Shown: positions 6,653-25,422 of the stretch, piece by piece | Position numbering within the stretch: the stretch's first letter is position 1 | Layout: every line of letters begins with the position of its first letter | Virus record (IMG/VR): IMGVR_UViG_2563366895_000001 | Span: 27,011-91,010 of that record | Length of the DNA stretch: 64,000 nucleotides | Reading direction: 5' to 3' (one strand) | DNA from: a virus | Lineage: Duplodnaviria > Heunggongvirae > Uroviricota > Caudoviricetes | Translations under genes and position numbers: made by a program | Notes under the pieces: generated by a model | The model's input: the letters and a program-made list of their open reading frames with translations, nothing else | What the model was told of the DNA's origin: nothing | Database searches by the model: none

Positions 6653-9600
6653 GTAGCCATAACGTCATGAGCAACACCACGAGTGTCTCCCTTACAAGAC
6701 ACAGAACGTCTGGCAAAGAGAGGTTCCACTCTGAAGCCACTGTCCTGATAAAGTTCTCTGATGTTTGGCGCGCCACTGTTAGTAATGAGTACCTTTGCAC
6801 CTCGGCGATGAGCATCCGTCAACAGAGACACCAGGCGTTTTTGCTCTTCAAACTTAAAGTCATGACCGGAATAGTTCGTGAATCCCTCTGTATTTGGAAG
6901 CGGTTCATATGGCGGATCGCAAAAAATGACATCTCCTTCTCCGGCAGCTTCAATCACCGCAGCAAAATCACCACATACAAACTCAGAACGCCCTTCCGCA
7001 CCAAGGAAGACTTCCATCTCCTGCAATGGGAAATACGGAGTTTTATACTTCCCATAACCGACATTGAACTCACCGGCTTGGTTGTAACGCGTCAATCCAT
7101 TAAAACAATGTCGGTTCAGGAACAAAAACGCCGCTGCGAGATGTAAATCATCATAGACTTGTTTGTTAAACGCATTCCGTACTGCCAGGAATCCCTCCTG
7201 GGTGTTGTAGTCCAGGAAGAAACGATGTGCCAGAGTGATAAGTGAATGCGCCTCGCGTTGCAGAGTCTTGTAAAAGTTAATCAGGTCAGCATTCACATCA
7301 TTTAGCAGATTTTCCTGGTATCCGGCATTTATGAAGACAGCTCCGCCACCAACGAAAGGTTCAATCAGGCGCTTCCCTTCTGGCAAATAGCGAAAGATTT
7401 GTTCCAGAACACCAAATTTTCCACCAGCCCATTTGAATATGGACCGTTCGAATTCTGCCGCTGGTTTAACTTTTCGCTCTTTTGTTTCACTTCCTTCTTT
7501 CTGCCGACATACGGCCTTAGTAATCCGATCGCCAATCCAGCACATTACTGGTATTGCCATACTATTGCCGATCGCTTTGTAACGCGGTCCGTCAGCTGCA
7601 AGCATCGCGGCCTCTTCTTCGCTTAAATCTGGATAGTGATTGCGAAGATATGCCAGTTCATCTGAATTAACTGTTTTACGCTTTTCCGTCGGGATCAACG
7701 TATGCCCATCAGGAAAACCTTGCAGCCTTTCACATTCGACAGGGGTAAGACGGCGCATTCTACCGTCGCCGAGCAATACAATTGGTGCTTCATGGTTACA
7801 TGTCAAAGTTGGTGCCGAATTATCGGTTTTTATCTCAGCCCCTCCTTGCCCATGTGCCATGGCAATTATGTTTGTATCATCGCAAGTTCTGATAGCGATG
7901 TTTGAAGTATATCTGGTAGTTTCCTTCCCCTCGCCTCTGCTCGGCGCAATATCCCGGCGCACGCCTTCGAACTCAAAAAGTACCGTTGCGGGATCGAGGT
8001 CTGTTCGAGCACTTGCGACAACAAACACGCGTCGGCGTCGTTGTGCCACTCCGAAGTATTGGGCATCAAGGATTCTCCAGGCCACTTTTCGCTGCGATCC
8101 ATAAATACAACCACACTGCGGCCACTTTGGAGCATGGCAACCGGTTTTGCCATCCCACCGCCAGAACGCGTTACTTTTTCCTGATTCAGGTCGATCACCT
8201 GGTTCAAATGGCGCATCTTCTCCAGCCAATCCGGCAAGGAAACATCCGAAGGCGTTATCTGCCGATGACAAGACTCCTGGGACATTTTCCCAGACGATAA
8301 CGGCTGGTTTGAGAAATGACTCAGCCCGTTTGTCGTCAATTGCATTTGCAAGCTCCACATACTTTAAAGTTAGCGCGCCACGCTCATCATCAAGCCCACC
8401 ACGTAATCCCGCGATACTGAATGCCTGACAGTTATGGACCACCGCACCATTGAGGATATAGGAATGATCACCTTCGACTTCTATGTTGTATACAGTATCT
8501 AGGCCTACCGATTTAAACTCTTTGACTGTTCGTAAAAGCATTCCATGAGCCAATCTTGATTTACGTGACAATTTCTGCGGGCAGATTGTTACCTGATAAT
8601 AATTCCGTTGATTTACCACGCGATCCTCGATCACTTTTTTGGGCTCAACTTCAATAAAGCTGACCGAAGAAACATAACCACAAGTCTGTGACAACCCCGC
8701 AACGCCCCAAGCAAGCGCAGGACTAACACTATTAATTCTAAATCCCGCTTTACCACTTGGTGTCCCATCAGTATCAAGATAGCCTTGTAAAAACACATGA
8801 CGCAATGGATGCGACATCACCCATGCAGGGATACGCTTAGCATGGCTTAACTCGCCAAAATGTTCATTAAGCCAATTGGCATAACACGTATCATTCAAGG
8901 TTACTTTGATGCTCCCTCGGATTTCGCTTGCCACGGAAAATATGTTTTCTGGTATGCGGCAATGAAACTTTCTCAATTTCTGGCAATTTATGCCAAAAAC
9001 AACCGCCTTCTTAGATTTACCTCTCCATCTCCTAATATATCCATCGCCAACATAAGCGCCCGCAAGATACATAGCCTGTTCTTCAGACAAGAACCGAGAA
9101 CAAATATCTGGAGATGCAATATTGAAATTAGTTAGAGCGCACCATTGATATCCCGGCATATCACATGCTGCTCGCCATTCCGGTTCAGACAACAACTCTC
9201 TCTTAAAATATGTGCCATTTTTCCGGGTGTTTTGGGCTTTCCACCGAACAGCCAGGAAGGGATGGTCATTGGTTGTTCTTATACCTAAAGGCTGCCCAAC
9301 GGCATTAAGTAACCCCGTATTAGCTATTTTTGAACCAACTCTTTTTACTTGTTGTAACCGCCCGAGATGACTGACTACGTAATCGCCAGGGCAAACATCT
9401 TCTATTGGTTTATAACCATTTTTACAAAGAACCATATGCCCCGCGGTAAAACATGGTGTTCCCCCGACGAGCACGTCAGGGGATTCGATTTCCCCAGCCA
9501 AGACTTTTTTGGCAAGTTTTGTCATGTCGCCAAGGTTGGCGACATGGGGCCAGCGGAGCGCAAGAACGGCCGATGGAAAAGGCTCGATTTCAGCAAACCA

Positions 9601-22497: not shown

Positions 22498-22520
22498 AAA
22501 GCTCCTTCGGGAGCTTTTTT
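22498..22520 (+). terminator. Rho-independent terminator
   Basis: AAAGCTCC-TTCG-GGAGCTTT followed by TTT. Confidence 0.6.
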
Positions 22521-22582
22521 ATTTGGAGAGGAAAGGGTGCATTGAGGATACCTGACACACGAAGAGTGGCGGGGATCTCTCC

Positions 22583-23921
22583 CATAAGCGCTAACTTAAG
22601 GGTTGTGGTATTACGCCTGATATGATTTAACGTGCCGATGAATTACTCTCACGATAACTGGTCAGCAATTCTGGCCCATATTGGTAAGCCCGAAGAACTG
22701 GATACTTCGGCACGTAATGCCGGGGCTCTAACCCGCCGCCGCGAAATTCGTGATGCTGCAACTCTGCTACGTCTGGGGCTGGCTTACGGCCCCGGGGGGA
22801 TGTCATTACGTGAAGTCACTGCATGGGCTCAGCTCCATGACGTTGCAACATTATCTGACGTGGCTCTCCTGAAGCGGCTGCGGAATGCCGCCGACTGGTT
22901 TGGCATACTTGCCGCACAAACACTTGCTGTACGCGCCGCAGTTACGGGTTGTACAAGCGGAAAGAGATTGCGTCTTGTCGATGGAACAGCAATCAGTGCG
23001 CCCGGGGGCGGCAGCGCTGAATGGCGACTACATATGGGATATGATCCTCATACCTGTCAGTTCACTGATTTTGAGCTAACCGACAGCAGAGACGCTGAAC
23101 GGCTGGACCGATTTGCGCAAACGGCAGACGAGATACGCATTGCTGACCGGGGATTCGGTTCGCGTCCCGAATGTATCCGCTCACTTGCTTTTGGAGAAGC
23201 TGATTATATCGTCCGGGTTCACTGGCGAGGATTGCGCTGGTTAACTGCAGAAGGAATGCGCTTTGACATGATGGGTTTTCTGCGCGGGCTGGATTGCGGT
23301 AAGAACGGTGAAACCACTGTAATGATAGGCAATTCAGGTAATAAAAAAGCCGGAGCTCCCTTTCCGGCACGTCTCATTGCCGTATCACTTCCTCCCGAAA
23401 AAGCATTAATCAGTAAAACCCGACTGCTCAGCGAGAATCGTCGAAAAGGACGAGTAGTTCAGGCGGAAACGCTGGAAGCAGCGGGCCATTTGCTATTGCT
23501 AACATCATTACCGGAAGATGAATATTCAGCAGAGCAAGTGGCTGATTGTTACCGTCTGCGATGGCAAATTGAACTGGCTTTTAAGCGGCTCAAAAGTTTG
23601 CTGCACCTGGATGCTTTGCGTGCAAAGGAACCTGAACTCGCGAAAGCGTGGATATTTGCTAATCTACTCGCCGCATTTTTAATTGACGACATAATCCAGC
23701 CATCGCTGGATTTCCCCCCCAGAAGTGCTGGATCCGAAAAGAAGAACTAACTCGTTGTGGAGAATAACAAAAATGGTCATCTGGAGCTTACAGGTGGCCA
23801 TTCGTGGGACAGTATCCCTGACAGCCTACAAAACGCAATTGAAGAACGCGAGGCATCGTCTTAACGAGGCACCGAGGCGTCGCATTCTTCAGATGGTTCA
23901 ACCCTTAAGTTAGCGCTTATG
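22583..23921 (+). mobile_element. IS186-like insertion sequence (IS4 family), 1339 bp, with 10-bp target-site duplication
   Basis: Perfect 23-bp terminal inverted repeats CATAAGCGCTAACTTAAGGGTTG (22583..22605 and 23899..23921); direct repeat GGATCTCTCC at 22573..22582 and 23922..23931. Confidence 0.8.
22632..23750 (+). CDS. insL: IS186-like transposase
   Basis: 372-aa ORF filling the IS; translation (MNYSHDNWSAILAHIGKPEELDTSARNAGALTRRREIRD...) matches my recollection of IS186 InsL. Confidence 0.8.
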   Translation: MPMNYSHDNWSAILAHIGKPEELDTSARNAGALTRRREIRDAATLLRLGLAYGPGGMSLREVTAWAQLHDVATLSDVALLKRLRNAADWFGILAAQTLAVRAAVTGCTSGKRLRLVDGTAISAPGGGSAEWRLHMGYDPHTCQFTDFELTDSRDAERLDRFAQTADEIRIADRGFGSRPECIRSLAFGEADYIVRVHWRGLRWLTAEGMRFDMMGFLRGLDCGKNGETTVMIGNSGNKKAGAPFPARLIAVSLPPEKALISKTRLLSENRRKGRVVQAETLEAAGHLLLLTSLPEDEYSAEQVADCYRLRWQIELAFKRLKSLLHLDALRAKEPELAKAWIFANLLAAFLIDDIIQPSLDFPPRSAGSEKKN

Positions 23922-23943
23922 GGATCTCTCCCCGCCAGGTCTC

Positions 23944-24099
23944 TTACCTTTCAGATTCGTAGGCTGTGAAGACAGTGACCTCCGTCTGGCCGGTTCGGAT
24001 TCGTACCTCGCAGAGGTCTTTCCTCGTTACCAGTGCCGTCACAATGACGGTTAAACAGATGACGATCAGAGCGATTAACATCGCTTTTTGCTGCTTCAT
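23944..24099 (-). CDS. hok: Hok/Gef-family type I toxin (51 aa); not in the supplied ORF track
   Basis: Hand translation MKQQKAMLIALIVICLTVIVTALVTRKDLCEVRIRTGQTEVTVFTAYESER, close to HokC/Gef. Confidence 0.7.
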   Translation of the reverse strand: MKQQKAMLIALIVICLTVIVTALVTRKDLCEVRIRTGQTEVTVFTAYESER

Positions 24100-24157
24100 A
24101 GCCTGCTTCTCCTTGACCTTTTGGTCGGTAAGAGGCTAATCTACGTATGCTAAGCAT
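23951..24157 (-). CDS. mok: Possible mok-like overlapping reading frame
   Basis: 68-aa ORF in another frame spanning the hok ORF, as mok does in hok/sok loci. Confidence 0.35.
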   Translation of the reverse strand: MLSIRRLASYRPKGQGEAGYEAAKSDVNRSDRHLFNRHCDGTGNEERPLRGTNPNRPDGGHCLHSLRI

Positions 24158-24280
24158 AGATATGGCCTCAGATTAATGTTAAGCGTCTTGCAGGACGCGT
24201 AATGTTATCTGGGGCTTTCTTCTATCTGCTTTTCGGGTAATGCCTGAAGCAGATAGCCTCAAGCACCCGCAACGATTGTA

Positions 24281-24526
24281 TCAATGTCTGGCTTTTTTTC
24301 TATAGAAATCACCTGGAAGGGTGAATATCCACATCAAAAGAAATGTTGCAGCAAACATGATCCCTAATGGCCAGACCGCGCCAAAGAAAATCCATACTAA
24401 GATCTCCTCTGTTCGTTCTTTGCGGTCGATATCGACAAGCATTTTTCGGCTGATCATGTATACACAGAAGCCAATACAAACATATCCTGCAAAAGAGATC
24501 GCTAACTGTAAAAAATCAGATTGCAT
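24281..24526 (-). CDS. Small membrane protein (two predicted TM segments)
   Basis: Start taken at internal ATG 24526 (MQSDFLQLAISFAGYVCIGFCVYMI...) to avoid overlap with repL. Confidence 0.3.
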   Translation of the reverse strand: MQSDFLQLAISFAGYVCIGFCVYMISRKMLVDIDRKERTEEILVWIFFGAVWPLGIMFAATFLLMWIFTLPGDFYRKKARH

Positions 24527-24576
24527 CTCCGACCTCAAACTGAAAACGCCAGGTGACTCCAGATTAGAGCAATTTA

Positions 24577-25422
24577 TCACCCTCTGAATCCTGCCGGTAT
24601 ACCCCATTGTTCGTTATCTTTATTTTTGGCTAAAACCGCATTAAGAGCTTCGTTTACCGTCATGCAATGCGGCAGATTATCGAAGTTTGATATCCCGCCA
24701 ATATCAGGAGAACGCTTGTCCTTCAGGTAAGCATATTTCCGCGCTGCCGCCTCTACTTTCTGCTTGAACTCATGTTTTTGAGCGCGTTTTTTGGATAACC
24801 GCAGATTGTCAGCCTTTGCTTTTGCCTCAGCGATCCATGAAGTCAATTTTTTGAGTCTGGTCGTTCCGGCACCGCCGGAAACTGATCTTTTTGTTTTTTT
24901 AACTTGTGACTTCTTATTCTTTATTGCCACGTCATCCTGACAGGGGGAGGGGGTATCATTTTGACATGGGGGTGTGGATAAAAAATTAAATAAAGCCAAT
25001 GTCTTAGCGAGAACAGCTTTAACCTTGGTTGCCGCTGAAGAGATCTTTAATTTGCTTTCAATCAGCGCATTTTTGGCTTGTTGTGCGAAGGCCAAAAAGG
25101 ATGGTGTAAACCGGTACAGGTTAGCGCGACGTTCACGGTGATCGCCGATAACAATCTCTACAGACAGGATTCCTTTGTTTACAGCTTCACGGAATGCACG
25201 AACGACGGTTGATTGGCTATAACCAGTTTCTGCCGCGATCAGGCGGTGAGGCTTGTGAATGAAGTATTCACTGGTTGTTGCCGCGAGATTTGCACATTGC
25301 GACAGGATATGCCCGGCGCTACGGGATAGACCGGAGTGTGTTACAAAGCAGGCCAATTCATAGCCAGAAAAAGTAAAATCGCTCATCGTTATACAGCTCA
25401 GGAAAGTGACTTTAGCCAGCAT
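24577..25422 (-). CDS. repL: Putative lytic-replicon initiator (P1 RepL position, 281 aa)
   Basis: Immediately downstream of kilA in the same orientation; HTH-like N-terminal region; length matches my recollection of RepL. Confidence 0.45.
   Translation of the reverse strand: MLAKVTFLSCITMSDFTFSGYELACFVTHSGLSRSAGHILSQCANLAATTSEYFIHKPHRLIAAETGYSQSTVVRAFREAVNKGILSVEIVIGDHRERRANLYRFTPSFLAFAQQAKNALIESKLKISSAATKVKAVLAKTLALFNFLSTPPCQNDTPSPCQDDVAIKNKKSQVKKTKRSVSGGAGTTRLKKLTSWIAEAKAKADNLRLSKKRAQKHEFKQKVEAAARKYAYLKDKRSPDIGGISNFDNLPHCMTVNEALNAVLAKNKDNEQWGIPAGFRG

Follow-up and report, generated by a model that had tools for sequence, protein, structure and literature searches.

The minus strand of the DNA analysed here (a stretch of 64,000 nucleotides, hereafter the window) carries a genuine hok/mok/sok type I toxin-antitoxin locus that is interrupted, shortly after the toxin gene, by the insertion sequence IS186 and is probably disarmed; we put the probability of this reading as a whole at about 70%. 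A sequence-only reading had described a hok/mok locus at this place and credited it with post-segregational killing. That a type I toxin-antitoxin locus is present was borne out by Pfam and Rfam matches and by the predicted Sok RNA, but working post-segregational killing is doubtful, because IS186 cuts off the 3' stem, the fold-back inhibition element (fbi) and the terminator. The insertion had been overlooked; the coordinates given earlier stop at the ORFs.

The hok, mok and sok genes and their surroundings

The hok ORF (23944..24099, minus strand, 51 aa) is preceded by the SD sequence AAGGAG at 24109..24114 and translates to MKQQKAMLIALIVICLTVIVTALVTRKDLCEVRIRTGQTEVTVFTAYESER. This 51-codon ORF had been taken for a Hok/Gef-family membrane toxin with the C-terminal motif CEV.IRTGQTEV.VFTAYE, and both points held: the motif is present in the translation, and the search against Hok family models returned a significant match to Pfam PF01848 (HOK_GEF) over the full profile (positions 1-42 of 42; 78.7 bits, cutoff 22; E 2.4e-22). 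PHROG 251, 'MokW-like host killing', was matched as well (E 4.9e-32), while tblastn over the whole window revealed no second Hok homologue. The toxin shares 48 of its 51 residues (94%) with K-12 HokD/RelF and is 42% identical to R1 Hok. Two NCBIfam Hok models scored under their strict cut-offs (49.5 vs 73 and 38.1 vs 89), implying that the public name 'HokD' probably derives from protein identity instead.

These low scores, and the small size of the ORFs, might be taken to mean that we are dealing with chance ORFs or an annotation artefact rather than with genes. The probability of this is close to nil, as the idea is refuted by the Pfam and PHROG E-values just given, by an Rfam match of 114.9 bits and by an architecture conserved across genera. 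The locus is a bona fide member of the hok/mok/sok type I toxin-antitoxin family, and we regard this assignment as nearly certain.

The locus had also been called unlisted. It was indeed missing from the ORF list, through the ORF-size cut-off alone, but the identical gene is annotated in public records, where the locus is already known as 'hokD', Hok/Gef or 'MokW'. DNA at least 99% identical is found in hundreds of plasmids in PLSDB, where the gene goes by 'hokD' or 'Hok/Gef family', as well as in six records of P1-type phages; in one of the six it is named 'MokW'.

A side observation concerns the codon for Tyr47, whose context GCC-TAC-GAA (23956..23964, minus strand) contains the motif TACG. 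In HokC, HokD and HokE, A-to-I mRNA editing that recodes Tyr to Cys has been reported at this position (PMC12214031); by analogy, the window Hok may be edited likewise at Tyr47.

Upstream of hok, a promoter scan identified TAGAAA, a 16-nt spacer and TG-TACAAT (24275..24302, minus strand), with 9 of 12 consensus matches plus the extended -10 TG. The predicted start of transcription, at about 24268, lies about 7 nt downstream of this promoter and coincides with the first base of the Rfam leader match. The 5' end of the hok mRNA would be formed by the translational activator tac, GGGTGCTTGAGG (24257..24268, minus strand), which belongs to a near-invariant 5' block in the 28 related loci that we compared, from Escherichia, Kluyvera, Citrobacter, Photorhabdus and Pantoea. 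The whole leader (24094..24268, minus strand), comprising tac, ucb, the Sok-target hairpin, the mok start region and the hok SD, matched the full model of RF01794 (positions 1-157) on the hok sense strand, with 114.9 bits (GA 59) and E 6.3e-27. Within it, the mok SD (GAGG) is part of a long hairpin, which is followed by the mok ATG and then by the hok SD (AAGGAG).

RF01794 is named 'sok antitoxin', yet it models the hok sense-strand leader, and its match ends at the hok AUG. In K-12, too, its matches fall on the coding strand of hokC and of hokE, with sokC and sokE annotated on the other one. Pipelines that rely on this model will put 'sok' on the wrong strand and with the wrong ends. A plus-strand RF01794 match at 24211..24359 was rejected as spurious (22.2 bits, below GA), the real Sok being antisense to the strong minus-strand match; matches to the Rfam families ceN48 and P31 were likewise judged spurious.

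The mok ORF (68 codons; 23951..24157, minus strand) starts at the ATG 24155..24157, behind the SD GAGG at 24166..24169, and spans the SD and start of hok in the +1 frame relative to hok. The ORF list thus agrees with the earlier description of a 68-codon ORF overlapping hok in another frame. [quoted passage not shown] This pattern fits a mok that acts via its translation and not through its peptide, and the ORF layout and SD are those expected if translation of mok and hok were coupled.

The mok translation matched phrog_37205 (E 8.3e-21) but no Pfam family. Phage annotators have repeatedly called the out-of-frame mok as a protein, with a PHROG of its own; in most related loci, mok is simply the Hok frame with an N-terminal extension.

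The antisense RNA is encoded on the plus strand. Its candidate promoter (24113..24142) consists of a -35 TTGACC (24113..24118), an 18-nt spacer and a -10 TAATCT (24137..24142). With just 3 of 6 matches in the -10 element, it fell below the threshold of the consensus promoter scan, and it was its conservation, together with a mapping of the sokC annotated in K-12, that revealed it. It lies in a conserved block, CTCCTTG(A)CC...GTAAGAGGCTAATCT, common to the Escherichia, Kluyvera, Photorhabdus and Pantoea loci, whose plus-strand form in the window is CTCCTTGACC...GTAAGAGGCTAATCT. The predicted Sok, of about 77 nt (about 24149..24225, plus strand), has its ends aligned to annotated K-12 sokC, which places the 5' end 7 nt downstream of the promoter. 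In the predicted fold (-33.6 kcal/mol, z -5.3), the 5' end is a single-stranded tail of 15 nt, with complementarity to the mok start region; a long hairpin with a GC clamp follows, and the RNA ends in a run rich in U. Compensatory changes occur in four pairs of the consensus stem across 17 loci, and through an extended hairpin, common to prophage-type loci, this Sok exceeds SokC by 18 nt. On the plus strand, a promoter and a terminator for Sok had been predicted, and we found candidates for both, at 24113..24142 and about 24163..24227, respectively. These features point to a cis-encoded antisense Sok with its own promoter, complementary to the mok initiation region.

The window belongs to a P1-like, IncY-type phage-plasmid. 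A context of active partition, invoked earlier, is present in the form of repA-parA-parB at about 13.5-16.9 kb, by annotation transfer from NZ_CP032890 (98.7% identity). On one side, hok is closely preceded by repL (24577..25422, minus strand) and by a small ORF for a membrane protein; on the other, it is followed by bplB and the tail genes. At this position reference P1 and P7 carry rlfA-rlfB-pmgF (rapA-rapB) and no hok, which indicates that the hok cassette was swapped in as accessory cargo of a sub-lineage. The hok/mok/sok locus is accessory cargo in the repL-bplB interval of this phage-plasmid.

Homology to reference P1 and P7 stops at about 24563, which places the boundary of the cargo swap inside a putative C1 operator. 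The sequence ATTGCTCTAAT (24563..24573, minus strand) directly follows the repL stop codon (24577..24579) and stands in the place of the leftmost 11 nt of Orlf/Op55, a C1 operator of P1 (NC_005856, 51575..51591). In the swap, rlfAB was replaced by a small ORF plus hok. The small ORF (24281..24607, minus strand, 108 aa) is annotated in relatives as the 81-aa hypothetical protein WP_001369095.1; it has hydrophobic segments and matched phrog_3772 (unknown function; E 3.9e-53), and neither Pfam nor PADLOC has a family that matched it. In the P1 sub-lineage it accompanies hok, whose -35 is about 20 nt beyond the stop codon of the small ORF.

NZ_CP020936, a near-identical plasmid of 64.7 kb, has an extra segment of about 1.5 kb (7829..9367), encoding a MazG-like family protein, between IS186 and bplB; this segment is absent from the window, where the corresponding position is 22511..22523. 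It provides further evidence that the repL-bplB interval is a cargo hotspot. Searches with the reference P1 protein or DNA gave no match to phd/doc in the window, but the P1 segment bearing phd/doc falls outside the window, and this absence therefore says nothing about the phd/doc content of the plasmid.

IS186 in the hok 3' stem-loop

A 1337-bp copy of IS186 (IS4 family; IS421/IS186 in the annotation of relatives), 99.85% identical to K-12 IS186A, occupies positions 22584..23920 and is the only copy in the window. Its transposase ORF (22632..23750, plus strand) is convergent with hok and matched the NCBIfam IS4 transposase model with 133 bits (cutoff 115). The element ends in inverted repeats, ATAAGCGCTAACTTAAGGGTTG, and is flanked by a direct 12-bp target duplication, GGGAGAGATCCC, at 23921..23932 and 22572..22583. 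In length (about 1.34 kb), terminal inverted repeats, DDE transposase of the IS4 type and target (GGGG-N6-CCCC type, duplicated over 10-12 bp), it has the features of its class.

Homology to IS-free P1-type records ends at 23921, 23 nt past the hok stop codon, and restarts at 22583; the junctions were compared with MH422554, which served as the IS-free reference allele. The element lies in the loop of a GC-rich stem-loop that begins 8 nt past the hok stop. On the minus strand, the left half of this stem-loop remains next to hok together with the left target duplication (23921..23936, with GGCGGGG at 23930..23936), and the right half lies beyond the element together with the right duplication (22568..22583, with CCCCGCC at 22568..22574). 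When the flanks are joined without the IS, GGCGGGG-AGAGAT-CCCCGCC is restored as in IS-free alleles, and the stem-loop is nearly invariant across all 28 loci. IS186 interrupts the 3' elements of hok, and we see practically no room for doubt on this point.

Beyond the element lie the 3' parts that the hok transcript would normally contain. The fbi, CCTCAATGCACCC (22535..22547, minus strand), which would pair with tac, is now 1.35 kb from hok, and the original transcript terminator hairpin, AAAAGCTCCCGAAGGAGCTTT (22498..22518, minus strand), marks the 3' end of the reconstruction that we folded. A terminator scan picked up this hairpin on the plus strand, at 22498..22517, and the hok terminator is probably bidirectional, serving bplB as well.

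The tac-fbi pairing itself appears to be a conserved property of these loci. The predicted duplex has a free energy of -21.0 kcal/mol for the window, and duplexes of -18 to -27 kcal/mol were found in every related locus. In the reconstructed IS-free mRNA (-168 kcal/mol, z -8.4), the first 12 nt pair with fbi in the MFE fold. Across the alignment, 99.4% of the tac-fbi cells are paired, against 47-62% in slid-partner controls, and pair 4 covaries, being U-A in 15 sequences and C-G in 11. In the window, tac and fbi do not share one uninterrupted transcript, as the 1337-bp IS186 separates fbi from hok; nor is there a continuous GC-rich terminal stem-loop after the hok stop, its GGCGGGG and CCCCGCC arms being split by the element. 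When the read-through transcript was folded, the 5' end paired locally, without a 3' partner, although MFE folds of 400-530-nt RNAs are too unreliable to assign a translational state.

We also considered a substitute fbi within IS186. The segment GCCUCGGUGCCUC (about 23866..23878, minus strand) pairs with tac at -17.9 kcal/mol, but other IS186 segments pair about as well (-18.8 and -16.3), the MFE fold leaves GCCUCGGUGCCUC unused, and we treat the match as probably due to chance. It sits some 45-55 nt into IS186, about where fbi would be, and the same holds for K-12 gef/hokC, in which the IS has the same orientation.

The insertion is common. Among 450 PLSDB records of the P1-lineage hok allele, 255 have the intact form and 195 (about 43%) the IS186-interrupted one (query coverage of at least 80%; these are counts of records, not of dereplicated lineages); IS186 was found in none of the six phage-collection records. 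The element has the orientation seen in the window in 161 of the interrupted records and the opposite one in 34, so that at least two independent insertions must have occurred.

The simplest reading of this recurrence is that IS186 prefers GC-clamped hairpins with a 6-nt loop as its target. In the IncF plasmid NZ_CP024157, IS186 sits in the loop of an unrelated terminator, GGCGGGG-AAAATC-CCCGC(T)7. This match to the hairpin-plus-IS186 junction was rejected as a further hok locus, there being no Hok ORF nearby. Several other junction-only matches had also been suspected of being hok loci; what the case of NZ_CP024157 shows is a preference of the element for its type of target and not for hok as such. 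A conserved RNA structural element of the form GGGG-N6-CCCC can thus itself serve as a transposon target.

Recurrence might also mean that the insertion is a selected 'safety catch', by which hok is disarmed while sok continues to be expressed; we hold this to be rather improbable. If the insertion were selected, or reversible by precise excision, and not a mere target hotspot, it would amount to a natural on/off switch for an addiction module.

Is the killing module still functional?

In its intact form, the locus would work much like R1 hok/sok. A stable full-length hok mRNA would be locked by 5'-3' pairing between tac and fbi, until slow trimming of its 3' end, back to the GC-rich terminal stem-loop, opened it; translation of mok would then drive that of hok. 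The short-lived Sok would bind the mok start region and bring about decay of the hok mRNA, blocking the toxin, and upon loss of the plasmid Sok would disappear first and the cell would be killed. In the literature on these systems, tac-fbi pairing holds the full-length hok mRNA closed and untranslatable, and 3' trimming yields a truncated (Tr) mRNA that refolds, is translated and is the form targeted by Sok (PMC9841398).

The terminal stem is critical in R1 hok, where 19 single substitutions that break one of its C-G pairs abolish both the Tr mRNA and toxicity (PMC9841398). On an R1-type sequence, allowing for a 5-nt offset in this sequence variant, the cited G345 and C358 fall in GGCGGGC-GCAG-GCCCGCC, 10 nt past the stop codon, and the 361-nt Tr mRNA of R1 ends just beyond this stem. 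By this correspondence of position and sequence, the hairpin split by IS186 is the terminal stem of the R1 Tr-hok mRNA.

In the window allele, the toxin ORF, the promoter, the leader, mok and the sok gene are all intact. The hok transcript would run into IS186, antisense to and convergent with the transposase gene, and, with the stem split by the insertion, would be deprived of its protective 3' stem, of fbi and of its native terminator. The most likely outcome would be that post-segregational killing is lost or strongly weakened, with Sok still being made. The K-12 precedents point the same way: for hokA, hokC and hokE, inactivation by IS elements has been suggested (PMC12214031), and in gef/hokC the fbi is believed to be disrupted by IS186 (PMC3562002). 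The loss of the 3' elements, these precedents and the R1 stem mutants together make the conclusion of a working killing module doubtful, and we infer that functional inactivation, in the sense of killing lost or strongly weakened, is rather likely.

Not all the evidence agrees. Although IS186 occupies this position, in this orientation, in K-12 gef/hokC as well, that locus is reported to be still transcribed and still under antisense control (PMC3562002), so that the RNA circuit is not dead. Moreover, the hok ORF is intact (99-100% identity) in the 195 IS-bearing PLSDB records, giving no sign of further decay, and some sequence within IS186 might happen to give a read-through transcript a new stabilising structure at its 3' end. 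Together with the intact 5' elements, mok, hok and sok and with the sheer commonness of the IS-bearing allele, this might be taken to mean that the module works fully and stabilises the phage-plasmid, IS186 being irrelevant to function. We consider this unlikely, given that fbi is needed for a stable inert mRNA and the terminal stem-loop for stability of the active one (PMC9841398), that both are off the transcript, and that the K-12 loci bearing this insertion are considered inactive (PMC12214031).

Since the sok gene and its promoter are intact, the locus might instead act mainly through Sok, as an anti-addiction device against the hok mRNAs of related prophages, or through infection-triggered release of Hok (abortive infection or exclusion), rather than in plasmid stability. 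Cross-reaction of Sok is conceivable, as Rac-type and Stx prophages commonly carry hok loci whose DNA is 87-92% identical, and R1 hok/sok has been reported to exclude phage T4 (Pecota and Wood 1996), which we counted in favour of exclusion. Yet no PADLOC defence model matched the locus, and abortive infection would suffer from the 3' damage just as killing after plasmid loss does. We hold a role of either kind to be very improbable; a genuine but probably disarmed hok/mok/sok locus remains our preferred reading.

For annotation, the gene is real and should be listed, but the labels 'working addiction module' and 'hokD' would both mislead. P1-like phage-plasmids often carry resistance genes, and this locus exists among them in two common states, intact and IS186-interrupted; before the locus is credited with a part in plasmid stability, its 3' end therefore needs to be checked.

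Comparison with known systems

The closest parallels to the interrupted locus are K-12 hokC (gef)/mokC/sokC with IS186A and hokE/sokE with IS186B, which are of the same family and architecture. In both, IS186 lies at the homologous nucleotide, in the loop of a GGCGGGG-N6-CCCCGCC stem just past the hok stop, with a 12-bp target duplication of the loop and stem edges as in the window; in hokC, its orientation is the same as well. The junctions read GGCGGGGAGTGATCCC/ATAAGCG in hokC, TGCGGGGAGTAATCCC/ATAAGCG in hokE and GGCGGGGAGAGATCCC/ATAAGCG in the window (the slash marking the junction). The duplicated sequences differ (AGTGAT/AGTAAT in K-12 against AGAGAT in the window), indicating independent insertion events. 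The K-12 loci are chromosomal, whereas ours is on a phage-plasmid. HokC (50 aa) is of a different subtype, about 82% identical to the window Hok; mokC is in frame with hokC, while the window mok is in the +1 frame; and SokC measures 59 nt against about 77 nt for the window Sok.

The hok/mok loci of Rac-type and lambdoid prophages (Rac, Stx phages, mEp460, Tritos) share 87-92% identical DNA with the window, from the leader through mok and hok to the 3' UTR, and have the same extended Sok hairpin. They differ in lying in a lambdoid context and not at the P1 repL-bplB junction, and in that their mok usually shares the reading frame of hok.

R1 hok/mok/sok (parB), the paradigm of type I post-segregational killing systems, has its elements in the same order as the window: promoter, tac, Sok-target hairpin, mok SD and start, hok SD and hok. 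Both have a GC-rich terminal stem about 8-10 nt past the stop codon and an fbi complementary to the 5' end, and their toxins belong to the same Pfam family, despite an identity of just 42%. Unlike R1, the window copy is interrupted by IS186, leaving the 3' stem and fbi off the transcript; also unlike R1, the IS-free allele of the window locus has a separate terminator hairpin after fbi.

K-12 hokD (relF), finally, shares homology with the window that starts at the hok SD and extends over the ORF and the 3' stem to fbi. It belongs to the Qin prophage, where relBE precedes it, and promoter, tac, leader, mok start and sok are all missing from it. The window locus has its own promoter, tac, leader, mok and sok, and no relBE upstream, and does not represent a K-12-type hokD/relF locus; judged by this layout, the public label 'hokD' reflects protein similarity, not orthology of the loci. 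The two are in fact mirror images of each other, the window copy having a complete 5' end and a broken 3' end, and K-12 hokD the reverse.
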